Positions 610 through 58,703 of a stretch of 64,000 bases of DNA are shown in pieces. Location: contig OX597835.1 of NCBI GenBank assembly GCA_951406725.2, forward strand, positions 30,752,001-30,816,000. The letters are read 5' to 3'. The notes beneath the pieces were generated by a model. That model saw only the letters and a list, made by a program, of their open reading frames with translations. It was not told the DNA's origin and did no database searches. The DNA comes from Octopus vulgaris. Taxonomy: Eukaryota. A program made the position numbers and the translations under genes. Each line of letters begins with the position of its first letter. The stretch's first letter is position 1.

Positions 610-951
610 TATGAAAGCTCAAAACTTATTTTGCTGGGTATGATGGAAAGTGTCAGCTGTCGACAGCTAGCACACTAAGGTGGTACTTATTTATTGATCA
701 TGCTTCAAGAACCTTGCGAAGAATTCTTGCAGTTCCAAGCAATGCTGATTTTTGTAGGTCTTCTATCTTCACACTTGCACCGATCTTTCTCAGCCATGCT
801 GTTAGTTCAGTGCTGATAGTTCCAAGAGAACCAATTACTGTTGGTATCACGTCTACTCTCCTCATTGACCGCAACCTTCGTATTTCCCACTTTAAATCGT
901 CGTAGTTGTTTTTTTTGGGTTTTTTTTCTTCGTACACATTGAGTCTTTTGT
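610..951 (-). mobile_element. R4/Dong-clade non-LTR retrotransposon 3' end (RLE C-terminus and 3' UTR)
   Basis: Translation YDDLKWEIRRL..VIPTVIGSLG...LQKSALLGTARILRKVLEA* matches the R4/Dong C-terminus; the 3' UTR runs into (TAA)n. Confidence 0.85.
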
Positions 952-1019
952 CATCATCACCATCATCATCATCATTATCGTCGTCGTTGTTGTTGTTGTT
1001 GTTATTCTTAATATTATTA

Positions 1020-1232
1020 GGGCGGCGCCTTGGTTGACTGTTTAGCACTCTGTACAAAATGCTTAGCAGCATCCAGACCGTCTTGCATTCTGGTTTGACA
1101 TTTCATCGAGGTCGACGTTCCCTTTCACCCCTTCGAGGTCGATCAAATAAGTGCCAGTTTAGACGGGGCCATCGGCAATCGACTTGCCGTCTCACCCAAA
1201 ATTTCAGGCCTTGTGCCTGTCGTAGAACGAAT
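1020..1232 (+). mobile_element. SINE family A (degenerate)
   Basis: aaaatgcttagc, gaggtcgacgttccctttcaccccttcgaggtcgat and aaatttcaggccttgtgcct motifs. Confidence 0.75.
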
Positions 1233-1515: not shown

Positions 1516-2188
1516 TGGGCGTAGCTGTTTGGACGCTGGTGATTTGGTACGGCAGATTGGATATTTAGCTTGTTTTGACAACAGTACGTTTTGGTGGGCA
1601 CACGCACTCACCCACATACACGTACATACATACACAAACAAACACACACATACACACACACACATAGAGACTCATACATGCACATTAACATAAACACTCT
1701 CTTCAGAGACTTAGAGAGAAGTATGTTCACATAAATAGAGAGTGAGAGAGAGAGAGAGAGAGAGTGAGAGAAAGTGTGTCTGTGTGTGTGAGAGAGAGAG
1801 AGAGAGTGAGAGAAAGTGTGTCTGTGTGTGTGAGAGAGAGAGAGTGAGAGAAAGTGTGTCTGTGTGTGTGTGAGAGAGAGAGAGTGAGAGAAAGTGTGTC
1901 TGTGTGTGTGAGAGAGAGAGAGTGAGAGAAAGTGTGTCTGTGTGTGTGAGAGAGAGAGAGTGAGAGAAAGTGTGTCTGTGTGTGTGAGAGAGAGAGAGTG
2001 AGAGAAAGTTTGTCTGTGTGTGTGAGAGAGAGAGAGTGAGAGAAAGTGTGTCTGTGTGTGTCTGAGCGAAGAGAGCGCGAGAGCGAAAATGAGACAAACA
2101 TCAAAAACGTCTGATGTCAAATAAGTCAGCGTCAAATAACCAACACCAAAGAGGCGGTGACAAAACGGCAACGCCACAGCGTCTCTCA
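1516..2188. mobile_element. Degenerate MITE-like element with inverted sub-repeated ends and internal microsatellite
   Basis: Left end is rich in (t)ttgg/ttttga sub-repeats and right end in ccaaa/tcaaa sub-repeats; related copy at 4378-4900. Confidence 0.45.
1737..2062. repeat. Compound minisatellite, unit of about 38-42 bp ((GA)n-gtgagagaaagtgtgtc-(TG)n), about 8 copies
   Basis: Near-identical tandem units. Confidence 0.9.
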
Positions 2189-6022: not shown

Positions 6023-6361
6023 TTCCATTTTACTTATTGTTTCCTGATAGTCATCGTTCATACTTTTTCCACACTTTTCGTCTCCGTGTTCTCACTGGAA
6101 CCATCACCACCAAATCTACCACCACCAGCACCACCACCACTACCAACAACAACAACAACAACATCAATATCATCTCCAGCACTACCATCATCACGAAGAC
6201 GACCACCACCACCAGCACCACTATTATCATCATCAGTATCAACACTGTCACCACAACCGTTATCATCACAATCACCACTACCACCACCACACCACCACCT
6301 GCAGAAAAGTTCAATCATGTAATCTGCGAGAATCCTACGAAAGATTCTTGAAAATTGAGGA

Positions 6362-6524
6362 GGCGTAGGGGTGGCTGCGTGGTAAGTAGCTTGCTTACGA
6401 ACCACATGGTTCCGGGTTCAGTCCCACTTCATGACACCTTCAGCAAGTGTCTTCTATTATAGCCTCGGGCCGACCAAAGTCTTGTGAGTGGACTTGGTAG
6501 ACGGAAACTAAAAGAAGCCCGTCG

Positions 6525-6615
<91 letters not shown>

Positions 6616-6820
6616 CTGTGTTTTTCCGCTCCCAACATCGCTTGTCAACCGATGCTGGTGTGTTTACGTCCCCGTAACATAGCTGTTCGGCAAAAGAGAC
6701 CAATAAAATAAGTGCTAAGCTCACAAAGAATAAGTCCTGGGGTCGATTTTCTCGACTAACAGACGGTGCTCCTGGTTGTCCACAGTCAAGTGTCTGAAAC
6801 AAGTAAAAGTGTAAAAGAGT
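6362..6820 (+). mobile_element. tRNA-derived SINE family B with internal (TA)n(TG)n
   Basis: Head ggcgtaggggtggctgcgtggtaag (A-box) and gggttcagtccc (B-box-like); CORE-like accttcagcaagtgtctt; tail ctgaaacaagtaaaag. Confidence 0.92.
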
Positions 6821-10750: not shown

Positions 10751-11574
10751 ATTATACCTTTATATCCACCTCGTGACTCAATTCCCGAAAATTTTATTTA
10801 TATATACATACACACACATACATATACACACACGCACATATATGTACATATATATATAAACATTATCGGTCGCACATACATCGATACATGTGTTACTGTG
10901 GGATGGTGTCCGGAGAAAGCTTCCTGCATGACACCGAATGTTAAAAAACACCTGAAGATCTCAGAACAGGCGAGTCAAATCTCTTAATCTCTGAGATTGG
11001 TAGTTCGTCAATATTATGGTTTATCAATACGATATATTCGGATTATCTCGAAAGGAAGTGAACCACTAGATCGGCAGTGATGGTAGGAATATCAGATACG
11101 TACGTCTGACATTCACGAGCTTTGCTAGTAGCATGTACCCAATGGCAACCGCGTGCCAAGAGAAAATCCTTTACTAATGATATAAGAGAGTGATTGACAA
11201 ATGACTGATCTGTGAAATTCGCCGGTTGGCTGAATAGAAATTCATTACGTGCAACAAAAAACAGTATTAGTTTAGAATAACCATCTCTGTATGATAATTA
11301 ATGCAGAAACAATGCAGACAGTTAGATTAACTGCGGTATCAATATCTCTTACGGACGTGTTGTGTGGATACCTGAAATGGACAAAGCCCCAAAATGAAGA
11401 AATGCACATCCAGCATTCCCAAAAACGGTGGTGCATGATATTGGTCAGATAAACTTTTGCCTAAAGAAACACAGAAACAATACAGATCTTTCTACGTTCC
11501 CCCCTCTCTCTCCCTATATATATACATATATATGTAGGCATGTATATATATATATATATACATATATATAAATA

Positions 11575-11921
11575 TATTAATAGTTATCGCCATACTAATA
11601 TGGCAGTCTAAATATAAGACTAAAGCTGTCGCTGATTAGCTCCAAGAGGCCATCGCCTCTAGCTAGCTATATGACATACGAACCTGCGTCCATTACAACC
11701 TTCGAACAGGTCAGCCGCTTCACCTTGCTAGTCAGACATCTGCAGACATGTTTCAGGGTTGTTGCCCTTTATCAATGCAGCGTAGTCAGAACCAGCAGGT
11801 GTCACTACTGACCGTCTGTTCGAAGAATTTATTTACCTAGTTACAGACGGTCAGTAGCGATACCTGGTGGTTCTGACAACGCTGCATTGATAAAGGGCAA
11901 CAGCCCTGAAACATGTCTGCA
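11575..11921. mobile_element. Penelope-like fold-back (inverted pLTR-type) element in (TA)n
   Basis: 79-bp arms 11741-11819 and 11843-11921 differ at 5 positions, with a 23-nt spacer; each arm ends in a hammerhead-like motif. Confidence 0.75.
11883..11921 (+). ncRNA. Variant minimal type I hammerhead ribozyme motif
   Basis: tgca-TTGATAA-agggc(aaca)gccct-GAA-ACATGT-C-tgca; the core differs from CUGAUGA at two positions; mirrored copy on the minus strand at 11741-11779. Confidence 0.6.
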
Positions 11922-12045
11922 TATATATATATATATATATGTATGTGTGTATATATATATATGTATATATACACACACACACACAATATATGCATGTGCA
12001 GTTATGTATGTATGTATGTATGTATTTAAGTATGTATGTGTCATT

Positions 12046-24994: not shown

Positions 24995-26255
<1,261 letters not shown>

Positions 26256-26300
26256 AATATCTTTACTTCGATTCGAACTTGTAAATTTTCTTATTCATAA

Positions 26301-26463
26301 GGCACAGGAGTGGCTGTGTGGTAAGTAGCTTGCTTACCAACCACATGGTTCCGGGTTCTGTCCCACTGCGTGGCACCTTGGGCAAGTGTCTTCTTCTATA
26401 GCCTCGGACCGAACAAAGCCTTGTGAGTGGATTTGATATACGGAAACTGAAAGAAGCCCGTCG

Positions 26464-26504
<41 letters not shown>

Positions 26505-26724
26505 GTTTGTGTGTCTGTGTTTGTCCCCACAACATCGCTTGACAACCGATGCTGGTGTGTTTACGTCCCCGTCATTTAGCGGTTGGTTCGGCAAGAGAGA
26601 CCGATAGAATAAGTACTCGGCTTACGAAGAATAAAGTCCTGGGGGGTCGATTTGCTCGACTAGATGCGGTGCTCCAGCATGGCCGCAGTCAAATGACTGA
26701 AACAAGTAAAAGAAAAGAAAAGAA
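26301..26724 (+). mobile_element. SINE family B, full length
   Basis: ggcacaggagtggctgtgtggtaag...ggcaccttgggcaagtgtc...(TA)n...gactgaaacaagtaaaag. Confidence 0.95.
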
Positions 26725-28427: not shown

Positions 28428-28429
28428 AT

Positions 28430-28670
28430 CTAATCATATCTGTCAGGCATGTGGAAGAGAGTGTAATTCGGCAGGTGGACTTAAACGACATGCAAAGGTA
28501 CATGAAGCCCAGTTACAACTACAGCCAGCTATTGCCAGAAAAGGTTATAGCTGTCCATTCTGTACGAGACGTTGTAGATCTTTAGCTGGCCACAAAGTCA
28601 CATTCGATCACAGCACCAATGACAGTTAAGCTTCGTGAAATGGCCATACTCGATAACGAGGGAGCAGCTA
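28430..28670 (+). mobile_element. LINE (probably RTE-clade) 3' end encoding two C2H2 zinc fingers
   Basis: CQACGRECNSAGGLKRHAKVH...CPFCTRRCRSLAG; the second finger is frameshifted; a short 3' UTR is followed by (TATC)n. Confidence 0.65.
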
Positions 28671-33324: not shown

Positions 33325-33718
33325 GGAGAGCTGGCAGAAACATTAGCATGCCGGGCCAAATGCTTCGCGGTATTTCGTCTGCCGTTACGTTCTGAGTTCA
33401 AATTCCGCCGAGGTCGACTTTGCTTTTCATCCTTTCGGGGTTGATAATTTAAGTACCAGTTACGCACTGGGGTCGATATAAGCGACTTAATCCGTTCGTC
33501 TGTCCTTGTTTGTCCTCTCTGTGTGTAGCCTCTTGTGGGTAGTAAAGAAATAGGTATTTCGTCTGTCTTTACGTTCCGAGTTCAAATTCCGCTAAGGTCG
33601 ACTTTGCCTTTCATCCTTCCGGAGTCAATAAATTAAGTACCAGTTGCGTACTGGGGTCGATCTAATCGACTGTCCCCCTCCCCAAACATTTCAGGCCTTG
33701 TACCTAGAGTAGAAAAGG
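33325..33718 (+). mobile_element. Dimeric SINE family A
   Basis: Full monomer with alternative tail joined at aaagaaataggtatttcgtctg to a headless second monomer. Confidence 0.92.
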
Positions 33719-39417: not shown

Positions 39418-39607
39418 GAGACCTCGATATTAAGTAAGTAGACGAAATTTATCTGTAAAATAATATGTGACAATTATTCGGTAACCAAAATAAAACTCTG
39501 TGCTTCGGATGGCAGATAACCGAAGAGATGGTGTTCTGGATTTCCATCTCGGTATCCGAGACTCAGTTTTATCTTGGCTACCGAATAAATGTCACATATT
39601 ATTTTAC

Positions 39608-39611
<4 letters not shown>
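39418..39611. mobile_element. Fold-back element with degenerate hammerhead, in (TA)n
   Basis: Perfect 22-bp IR at 39451-39472 and 39590-39611; agataa-CCGAAGA-G...C-GAGA-ctcagt-t-ttatct. Confidence 0.7.
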
Positions 39612-39673
<62 letters not shown>

Positions 39674-39706: not shown

Positions 39707-39929
39707 GAGACCTCGATATTATGTAAATAGAAGAATGTATCTATAAATATAATATAAAACAATCAGTTAGTTGTCATAATAAGACATAATAAGAGTTTCG
39801 GATGTCGGGGCTGATGACTTGCTCCGGCATCTCATCTGTTATTATTTGTCTTAATAACTGATGAGATGTCGGAGCAGGCTTCAGCCCCGACTTCCGAAAT
39901 TCTGAATTTTATTATGACAACTAACTGAT
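39707..39929. mobile_element. Related fold-back element with inverted hammerhead pair, in (TA)n
   Basis: Shares the start gagacctcgatatt with 39418; perfect 21-bp IR at 39762-39782 and 39909-39929; the inner arms are also complementary. Confidence 0.8.
39847..39919 (+). ncRNA. Type I hammerhead ribozyme, core intact
   Basis: Stem I tgtcttaataa/ttattatgaca (10 of 11 pairs), CTGATGA at 39858-39864, stem II gatgtcggagc/gccccgacttc, GAAA at 39896-39899, stem III attc-t-gaat, H=U at 39908. Confidence 0.75.
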
Positions 39930-39932
39930 CAT

Positions 39933-39994
<62 letters not shown>

Positions 39995-40447: not shown

Positions 40448-41058
40448 TTGGGTAGGCAAATAAGTTCCCGCCCTTTTTTTTAATTTTGGAATTTATCGCG
40501 TTTTTAAATTTTGGAATCTATTTGTTCGAGAATTCTATTTTTTAATCATTTTGGAATCATTTTTTTTTTTCAGTTAATTTTTGTTTATTTTTCAATCATT
40601 AAAATGGAATGTCAAGTTAAGAAAAACGAGCCTTTTCAACACCTCCTTTTTGCTTTGAATGAAGATTCTAAGGCCGCAAAAGCTGTTCTCAACATTTGTG
40701 CTGTGTATGGAGAGGGTGCCATAGCTGAAAGAACTGCTCGTGATTGGTATGTCAAGTTCAAAAATTTTGATCTCAAAGACGCACCTCGTTCAGTTGAGTT
40801 CGATGAAGAGCGATTAAACCAACTTTTGCACGAATATACTCGTCAAACGAAAAGTGAACTGGCAGAGAAAATGGAATGCTCACACACTGCTCTAGAGAAG
40901 CATCGATGGGAAAGGTTCAGAAGTATGGAGCATGGGTTCCGCATGCTTTAAGTGACAACAACAAAAATCAATGAGCCACAATCTCCGCTGGTTTGCTTGC
41001 TCGTCACCGCTCAACTCATGGACACAAGCAACGATTTCTTTACCGAATCATTACTGGC
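40448..41058 (+). mobile_element. Mariner (Tc1/mariner) transposon 5' half with transposase pseudogene
   Basis: TA followed by TIR ttgggtaggcaaataagttc; ATG at 40604; HTH region ICAVYGEGAIAERTARDW; WVPHAL motif; FLYRIITG; frameshift and stop; truncated at the start of the DD34D domain. Confidence 0.92.
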
Positions 41059-48269: not shown

Positions 48270-49392
48270 GATTACAGCAATTTCGGGGGTTGTGGAGGCT
48301 AAGCGGATTACATTGACTCCAGCACTAAATTAGTACGTATTTTATCGCCCTCGCAATGGACGAAAGGCAACCTTGAGCTTGGCAGATTTTGAACTCAGTA
48401 CGTAAATTTGGACGAAATGCTGCCAAGCAGGTAGCGATTCAGCCAGGTTACCGACCGTTTCTAAAGACACAAGGCTTGGAATTTTGTGGGAGGTGACTAG
48501 TCAATTACACCGACTCCCAATGCTTCCCTGGTATTTAATTTCTCGAATACGAAAGGATGGTAGGTAACGTTGACCTCGGCAGAACCATGGGTGGTAAAGT
48601 CGATTACATCGACCCCAGTGTTTCACTACTACTTAATTTATCGACCCCGAAAAGATGGAAAACAACGTTGACCTCGGCGGAATTTAAACTCAGAAAGCAA
48701 AGACGGACGAAATGCCTCTAAGCAGTTCGTCCAGTGGGCTAACGATTCTGCCAACTAGCCCCCTCACTAAAGTAATAATAAGGATTTCAAACTATTGTCA
48801 CTAGGGCAACATGGGAGGGGGTGTTAAGTCGATTACATCGACCCCAGTGCTTCACTACTACTTAATTTATCGATCCTGAAAGGATGTAAGGCAACGTTGA
48901 CCTCGGCGGAATTTGAACTCAGAACGTATGGATGGACGAAATGCCGCAAAGCATTTTAACCAACGTGCTTACGATTCTGCCTGCTTTATAATAATAATAA
49001 TCCTTTCTATTATCGGCGCAAATCCTGAAATGTTGGGGGACGACTTAAGTCAATTACATCGACCCCAGTATCCAAGTGGTACTAAATTTATCGACTCCGA
49101 AAGGATAAAAGGCAAAATCAATCTCAGCGGAATTCGAACTCACAACGTAACAGCAGACGAAATACCTATTTCTTTACCACCGACAAGGGACTAAACACAG
49201 AGGACAAACAAGGACAGACAAACGCCTTAAGTCGATTATATCAACTCCAGTACGTAACTGGTACTTAATTTATCGACCCCGAAAGGATGAAAGGCAAAGT
49301 CGACGTCGGCGGAATTTGAACTCAGAACGTAACAGCAGACGAAATACCGCAATGCATTTCGCCCGGCGTGCTAACGATTCTGCCAACTCACT
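48270..49392 (-). mobile_element. Tandem array of about 6 SINE A monomers, including a dimer at 49003-49392
   Basis: Repeated aatttatcgaccccgaaaggatgaaaggcaaagtcgacc-type cores. Confidence 0.9.
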
Positions 49393-58190: not shown

Positions 58191-58240
58191 TGATACTTAT
58201 TATTATTATTGTTATTATTATTATTATGATTATTATTATA

Positions 58241-58690
58241 GGCGCAAGAGAGGCTGTGTGGTAAGTAGCTTGCTTACCAACCACATGGTTCCGGGTTCAG
58301 TCCCACTGCTTGGCACCTTGGGCAAGTGTCTTCTACGATAACCTCGGGCCGACCAAAGCCTTGTGAGTGGATTTAGTAGACGAAAACTGAAAGAAGTCCG
58401 TCGTATATGTATATATATATATATATGTGTGTGCGTGTGTGTGTGTGTGTGTGTCTGTGTGTGTGTTTGTGTGTATCTGTGTGTGTCTGTGTGTGTGTCT
58501 GTGTTTGTCCTCCCAACATCGCTTGATAACCGATGCTGGTGAGTTTACGTCCTTGTAGCTTAGCGGTTCGGCAAAAAAAAACCCCGATAGAAGAAGTACT
58601 AGGCTTACAAAGAACAAGTCTGGGGATCGATTTGCTCGACTAAAAGCGGTGCTCCAGCATGGCCTCGGTCAAATGACTGAAACAAGTAAA
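58241..58690 (+). mobile_element. SINE family B, full length
   Basis: Head, CORE-like segment, (TA)(TG) and tail. Confidence 0.95.
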
Positions 58691-58703
58691 ATATTTATTA
58701 TTA

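Follow-up and report, generated by a model that had tools for sequence, protein, structure and literature searches.

A fold-back insertion of an abundant repeat with a predicted U3-A8 hammerhead, probably copied head to head by a Penelope-type enzyme

Penelope-like elements contain opposite-strand hammerhead pairs 100-700 bp apart, about 1,300 of their hammerhead motifs in S. mansoni carry a U3-A8 pair in the core, and dimer activity is low (PMC4209133). Natural U3-A8 variants are also noted, with earlier in vitro activity cited, in PMC3088659. Insertions of Penelope-like elements have an inverted 5'-truncated copy, a tail and a bias towards microsatellites (PMC8557442), and in vitro both target strands are cut and extended, copying can start internally, AT-rich targets are used and ribozyme cleavage is not needed (PMC11167929). 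What use the hammerhead has for these elements is still open according to both papers (PMC8557442, PMC11167929). Retrozymes are tandem units with canonical hammerheads and are probably derived from Penelope-like elements (PMC7229834; bioRxiv 10.64898/2026.07.22.740005). CAAAUA is the loop of the Schistosoma hammerhead, the loop-loop contact of which is made by a C..A hexaloop together with U and C letters (PMC2632901).

The locus described here, 11575-11921, lies in a window of 64,000 nucleotides (the whole stretch of DNA that was analysed), which is microsatellite-rich and animal-type in composition. It is built as follows.

11515-11574: left flank, a (TA)n-rich microsatellite
11575-11842, minus strand (RNA sense): main copy, a 5'-truncated member of a very high-copy repeat, with the main 3' end of the family at 11575
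11741-11819: left hairpin arm, lying within the main copy
11820-11842, minus strand: hairpin spacer of 23 nt, family sequence by which the main copy extends further 5'
11843-11921, plus strand: right hairpin arm, an inverted second copy
11922-11940: right flank, a (TA)n run

The original prediction described a hairpin with nearly identical arms, and re-deriving it gave the same result: the arms differ at 5 of 79 positions (11759/11903, 11784/11878, 11795/11867, 11801/11861 and 11804/11858), and the hairpin has a fold energy of -147 kcal/mol (z -24.75), which none of 200 shuffles equalled. It also placed a variant hammerhead in each arm, and both arms indeed read TGCA-TTGATAA-helix II-GAAACATGTC-TGCA, but the motifs lie on opposite strands, one per strand. 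Nor are the paired arms equivalent: past the predicted cut, the left arm continues for 170 nt as family sequence, whereas the right arm ends after 4 nt. Together with the right flank, these last nucleotides (11918-11921) can base-pair to the RNA immediately downstream of the cut, with seven Watson-Crick pairs and one G-U pair in the first nine positions. Counted strand-wise, 11 of the 376 (TA)n run ends in the window are preceded by TGCA, the hairpin's own included.

Elsewhere in the window we noted a mariner-type transposase fragment (40571-40948, plus strand; Pfam HTH_48, E 1.9e-11), a short C2H2 zinc-finger-like frame below the Pfam cut-offs (28429-28626, plus strand) and two SINE-like repeat families, each with many copies at 65-85% identity, the first for example at 6361-6808, 26291-26711 and 58240-58691, and the second at 25633-26058, 33328-33715 and 49004-49389. 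A frame at 698-1102 (minus strand) resembles what we take to be the C-terminal endonuclease end of a non-LTR retroelement and had no Pfam match. No tRNA genes were found in the window, and the best 150 of 455 Rfam matches over its whole length were microsatellite-driven microRNA models below cut-off.

Judged by its predicted structure, the motif is a type I hammerhead of canonical build with U3-A8 and A10.1-U11.1. Its parts, and the predicted folding of the main copy around it, are listed here.

11735-11787, minus strand: predicted type I hammerhead motif of the main copy
11776-11780 with 11740-11744, minus strand: helix I, with a sixth pair in family variants
11775-11769, minus strand: core, U3 to A9
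11768-11755, minus strand: helix II, 4 bp with A10.1-U11.1 and a 6-nt loop
11754-11751, minus strand: G12 to A15.1
11751-11746, minus strand: helix III, palindrome ACAUGU
11745, minus strand: C17, with the predicted cut between 11745 and 11744
11887-11893, plus strand: core of the right-arm hammerhead, with U3 at 11887 and C17 at 11917
11700-11825, minus strand: predicted long imperfect rod carrying the hammerhead at its tip (z -5.18, equalled by 0 of 200 shuffles)
11575-11699, minus strand: 3' family part with several short predicted hairpins, the most abundant portion of the family

The core letters U4, G5, A6, A9, G12, A13, A14, A15.1, U16.1 and H17 are all present in a three-way junction, and positions 3 and 8 form a Watson-Crick pair, U3-A8, which is seen in either arm and is standard in the family. 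The two core substitutions that had been singled out, U3 and A8, are thus there, together with a third departure from the consensus that had been overlooked, A10.1-U11.1 in place of G-C. We scanned the whole 64-kb window with a hammerhead descriptor in which positions 3, 7 and 8 were left free, and only two matches were obtained, at 11775 on the minus strand, the U3 of the left-arm motif, and at 11887 on the plus strand; 30 simulated windows gave a mean of about 0.23 matches per window. A palindromic helix III combined with G10.1 occurred in none of the 30 simulated windows, a strict filter that the real motif, with its A10.1, would itself fail. For the main copy in isolation, helices I and II and the short palindromic helix III are predicted, with pair probabilities of 0.78-0.92 for helix I and 0.97-1.0 for helix II. 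The main copy also has the letters for tertiary contacts, as loop II is a C..A hexaloop and 11738 and 11782 read U and C.

The descriptor missed a hammerhead with a long helix II at about 39858, which was read by eye. It has a C3-G8 core on the plus strand and lies in one (39752-39939) of two further fold-backs ending at (TA)n, the other being at 39447-39615. The former also has a U4-changed hammerhead core on the minus strand, and the left sides of the two share a 62-nt stretch at 82%. When the element was compared with the window by BLAST, no match was found at 39.4-39.9 kb, which agrees with the earlier reading that the stems of the two places are unrelated, and that the hairpin family is separate from the element at 39.7-39.9 kb.

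A search of public sequencing runs listed 24 runs (four species labels, nine studies), 20 of which contain the stretch or part of it. To profile the family, the contigs of four runs (species labels A, B, C and A) were aligned to 11565-11842 at a likeness of at least 80%, which gave 2668, 2394, 978 and 167 aligned contigs per run, and all 28 bins were covered in each of the four. In run X1, the summed contig depth, which is not a copy number, rises about 15-fold at 11575, from 38,451 to 585,218; it reaches 842k near 11600 and falls to 286k at the ribozyme and 94k near 11820, with single contigs at 30-80. The corresponding values are 897k, 341k and 83k in X2, and 76k, 14k and 4k in X4. The family probably comprises thousands of copies. 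Loose ends before 11574 were found in 49 (X1), 31 (X4) and 3 (X8) contigs, with a median length of 21-39 nt and one common sequence, the tail. The spacer (11820-11842) is covered continuously in all four runs, and one loose end in X4 has near-identical letters. The profile, with its sharp end at 11575, fading 5' side and optional tail of about 30 nt, is that of 5'-truncated insertions with minus-strand sense and a fixed 3' end. Among the 12 joints listed, 7 are strand switches, at 7 different places with one contig each (one place in two runs), of which the joint 11697/11816 may merely reflect an internal 10-nt repeat. None of the 12 is identical to the hairpin's own junction, which lies at the edge of the aligned stretch and may be unlistable. 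Also, loose ends or insertions at 11608 and 11707-11710 point to at least one further subfamily with divergent letters, and TTGATAA is retained in one X2 record in which the upstream context differs.

The variant analysis covered 40 of 49 variant rows among copies that are at least 80% alike. C3 occurs in less than 2% of the family in all four runs, because every A>G place is accounted for by the listed variants. For G8 the same holds, less than 2%, in X1 and X2, the two of four runs where every T>C place is likewise accounted for; in both X4 and X8 a single T>C is unlisted and of unassignable place, which limits the figure to X1 and X2. U3-A8 is therefore the family standard rather than decay. 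The original prediction had U3 and A8 predating the inversion, and their identity in both arms and prevalence across the family runs agree with this; a random mix of core substitutions among copies was not seen. That the two changes are compensatory, and compatible with activity, is borne out by analogy with published natural covariation (PMC3088659, PMC4209133).

The 12 core positions have no variants among these 40 of 49 rows (chance P 0.15), and 14 of the 40 variants break the predicted rod, against 16.0 expected (P 0.28, not significant), so selection is not demonstrated. Loop II reads CAAAUA in 42-65% of the family depth, about half. Most variants near the motif are compatible with it, and one at either 11739 or 11781 would restore the sixth pair of helix I, but the helix III palindrome is broken by one variant, at 0.1-19%. 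Where the arms differ, the left arm has the family letter at 11795 in all four runs and, judging by X1 and X2, at 11759 and 11784 as well, and the right arm has it at 11804 (94-98%). Three changes in the right arm (11867, 11878 and 11903) are non-family letters, two of them at tertiary-contact loop positions, where the last A of loop II and one loop I letter are altered. The inverted arm is truncated and decayed, with tertiary-contact positions lost, and self-cutting is predicted for the longer, main copy only. The kinetics of exchanges at positions 3 and 8 of hammerheads were reportedly analysed by Przybilski and Hammann in 2007, and Lunse et al. are said to have worked on hammerhead dimers.

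We also searched metagenome and viral sequences with a degenerate hammerhead pattern in which positions 3, 7 and 8 were free. This matched 12 metagenome loci and one viral locus, none of which aligns to the hairpin family, so they do not provide an independent covariation set; the 3'-end pattern of the family matched no viral contigs. Position 3 is C in five of these loci, four with C3-G8 (L004, L005, L008 and L010) and one with C3-A8 and no clear helix II (L001), and the remaining eight look like chance or coding matches. L004, L005 and L008 belong to a type I hammerhead family that has a C3-G8 core and is unrelated, although its ACAUGU palindrome and the TGCA of its helix I are the same, and in L005 two copies form a head-to-head pair (1965-2306) with 121-nt arms of 93% identity. 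Contig L010 (1-3629) is palindromic over its whole length at 96%, has a canonical C3-G8 hammerhead at the centre (motif 1822-1859, plus strand), and may be an assembly or reverse-transcription fold-back. The reading frames in its arms are presumably acyl-CoA-synthetase-like. Rfam hammerhead models gave no match at the hairpin, and the controls were weak as well, since the C3-G8 motif in L005 was missed and that in L010 scored below cut-off (Hammerhead_3, 28.6 bits).

Taken as a whole, the locus is probably a single insertion of this abundant hammerhead-bearing repeat, made by a Penelope-type enzyme that copied the RNA twice, head to head, into (TA)n. In this scenario, a Penelope-type reverse transcriptase/endonuclease would cut the (TA)n target on both strands. 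Priming of the first cDNA would take place where it normally does, 170 nt 3' of the ribozyme cut, and its synthesis would halt at 11842; the second would have an internal start, probably through microhomology immediately downstream of the cut site, and halt 23 nt sooner, after which the two 5'-truncated cDNAs would be joined head to head. Microhomology priming, a later deletion and priming on cleaved RNA are all possible for the end of the right arm. In the source element, the U3-A8 motif would cleave itself after GUC, aided by contacts between loops I and II and probably by dimerisation via the ACAUGU palindrome, while at the hairpin locus the fold-back would silence the ribozyme. The source may be a coding Penelope-like element, with the motif in its terminal repeat (pLTR), or else a retrozyme-like derivative that lacks coding capacity.

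Several traits of Penelope-like insertions are seen here: 5' truncation, an adjacent inverted copy and an optional tail (in the depth profile, the seven strand-switch joints and the loose ends), a hammerhead near the 3' end of the insertion, with the predicted cut 170 nt from the family end, and (TA)n on both sides at this one locus, in keeping with AT-rich or microsatellite targets. The same head-to-head geometry is found in the unrelated C3-G8 family of L005 and at two further places in the window, next to (TA)n. By Pfam, neither a reverse transcriptase nor a GIY-YIG domain was found in 88 reading frames of the window or in the truncated unit of 347 nt, and the hammerhead-pattern search of metagenome and viral sequences yielded no relative with flanks, so the link to a Penelope-type enzyme is drawn from architecture. 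Two points run counter to it: the 3' ends of the arms differ by 166 nt, against the 30-40 nt of the published tail, and the canonical build, with a 4-bp helix II, a 6-nt loop and an internal loop I, is tied more to tandem retrozymes than to pLTRs in PMC4209133 and PMC7229834. We file the hairpin as a hammerhead-bearing repeat that appears to insert like a Penelope-like element, and assign it to no named clade.

The build of the hammerhead could alternatively indicate a non-LTR retrozyme family, in which tandem-repeat masters yield small circular RNAs and the present locus is a dispersed, truncated and inverted offshoot. We regard this as possible, but hold it only tentatively; it overlaps with the best explanation, since retrozymes have been proposed to be non-autonomous Penelope derivatives. 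The canonical-type hammerhead, the self-paired non-coding unit with no reading frame through the motif and the unit size of at least 270 nt plus tail are features shared with the retrozymes described in PMC7229834 and bioRxiv 10.64898/2026.07.22.740005. However, no tandem copy occurs in the window, no joint among the 12 listed leads from the 3' end back to the 5' side (the unit may exceed the aligned stretch), and the polar depth and fixed end fit truncated retro-insertions better than tandem arrays.

It is rather doubtful that the hammerhead is dead, with U3, A8 and A10.1-U11.1 having hitch-hiked in a successful master copy and cleavage being dispensable for transposition. Ribozyme mutants of the anole element do insert in vitro, and RNA ends were not seen at the cut site (PMC11167929), 8 of 9 Xenopus retrozyme dimers remained uncleaved according to bioRxiv 10.64898/2026.07.22.740005, and selection on the core is not significant in the variant counts. 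Yet the two changes restore exactly the 3-8 pair, natural U3-A8 is reported as active in vitro (PMC3088659), and the main copy keeps helices I and II and the tertiary-contact letters, the variants at 11742 and 11768 being wobble changes and those at 11760 and 11761 of the wobble or loop class.

A bolder version of the Penelope-type insertion is improbable. In it, the inverted arm would end at the cut site because the second cDNA started on or directly beside the ribozyme-cleaved RNA end, and the source would be a non-coding element, dispersed in the genome, whose U3-A8/A10.1-U11.1 hammerhead works, is stabilised by tertiary contacts and is fixed throughout thousands of copies in several related species. 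If this were true, and if many copies shared that end, it would be genomic evidence for hammerhead cleavage in Penelope-type insertion, an involvement that the in vitro work on the anole element did not find (PMC11167929). The finding would carry greater weight if inverted copies ended at the cut site family-wide, because the service of the hammerhead to Penelope-like elements is still open.

The original prediction saw a shared fold-back design, and the great stability of the hairpin and the three local fold-backs in the window might suggest that the architecture was selected, either for ribozymes that cooperate or for functional double-stranded RNA as a substrate for editing or siRNA production. 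We consider this very unlikely. A transcript of either strand contains one sense motif and its antisense, and with the motifs on opposite strands a dimer in cis is not possible. When both arms are transcribed, helices I to III are no longer predicted, and core positions 3-9 are paired with probability 1.0 on either strand; reaching the hammerhead fold would cost 59.5-61.6 kcal/mol in the fold-back, compared to 6 kcal/mol in the main copy alone. Read-through RNA is thus predicted to bury its single ribozyme by about 60 kcal/mol, and the fold-back to work against the ribozyme rather than for it. Moreover, the family is mostly not fold-back, its most abundant part lies outside the arms, the inversion joints of other copies are scattered over seven different places, and the inverted arm has been truncated and has decayed. 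The geometry is common to the unrelated C3-G8 family of L005, and an adjacent inverted copy is a normal by-product of Penelope-like insertion (PMC8557442), so the notion of a fold-back design is not supported. Two other readings, as the precursor of a microRNA and as a miniature DNA transposon bounded by terminal inverted repeats, can practically be dismissed. The Rfam microRNA models that score the hairpin (best MIR862) do so far below their cut-offs (53 bits versus 100), reflecting pairing alone. The inverted repeat, with 166 nt of family sequence beyond the left arm, is not terminal, and inverted repeats thus do not lie at both ends of the family unit.

How does the hairpin compare with described systems? 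In the literature searched, to which subscription papers and repeat databases did not belong, we found no account of the hairpin family or of U3-A8 in a canonical animal type I motif. By title, none of the papers listed for octopus hammerhead ribozymes dealt with such a family, the text of PMC13282606 does not mention ribozyme or hammerhead, and for 'U3-A8' hammerheads only PMC4209133 was retrieved. With the metazoan Penelope-like pLTR hammerheads of Cervera and De la Pena 2014 (PMC4209133), the motif shares type I topology, a short palindromic helix III and U3-A8; one listed example from the Schistosoma mansoni U3-A8 families has the same UUGAUAA and a non-G-C 10.1-11.1 pair, and supplementary Fig. 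S4A shows an opposite-strand second motif at the 5' end of a truncated copy, as found here. In contrast to those pLTR hammerheads, the motif is canonical rather than minimal: its helix II has 4 bp and a 6-nt loop, A9 is not followed by an additional base, helix I continues past the internal loop, and no coding frame is attached. With EN+ Penelope-like insertions (Craig et al. 2021, PMC8557442; Frangieh et al. 2024, PMC11167929) the locus has in common 5' truncation, an adjacent inverted truncated copy, a one-sided optional tail, an AT-rich or microsatellite target and a 3' end well downstream of the ribozyme; it differs in that the inverted copy stops 166 nt before the main end is reached, where the published difference is a tail of 30-40 nt, and in that the enzyme was not seen. 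The metazoan non-LTR retrozymes (Cervera and De la Pena 2020, PMC7229834; Li et al. 2026, bioRxiv 10.64898/2026.07.22.740005) are alike in their canonical type I hammerhead, self-paired non-coding unit of a few hundred bases and thousands of copies, whereas the present family has no tandem array in the window or among the listed joints, and its core is U3-A8. The tertiary-stabilised hammerhead of Schistosoma mansoni (Dufour et al. 2009, PMC2632901) resembles it in loop 2, which reads CAAAUA in roughly half of the family, in the C-A opposition at the base of this loop, and in internal loop 1, which has a U on its 5' side (11738) and C as its last letter (11782), a match made by inspection and not by structure; U3-A8 and A10.1-U11.1 set the hairpin family apart.

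As U3-A8 is both the family standard and a published natural variant, the hairpin is mostly ordinary, and it adds one more hammerhead-bearing retroelement family and shows that standard CUGANGA and Rfam searches would miss a U3-A8 family of many thousand copies. The variant core itself is not new; the small twist compared to the described systems is the combination of U3-A8 with A10.1-U11.1 in a full hammerhead of the tertiary-contact type, which offers a natural test of whether, with the help of tertiary contacts, efficient cutting is possible for a U3-A8 core that has A-U as the basal pair of helix II.
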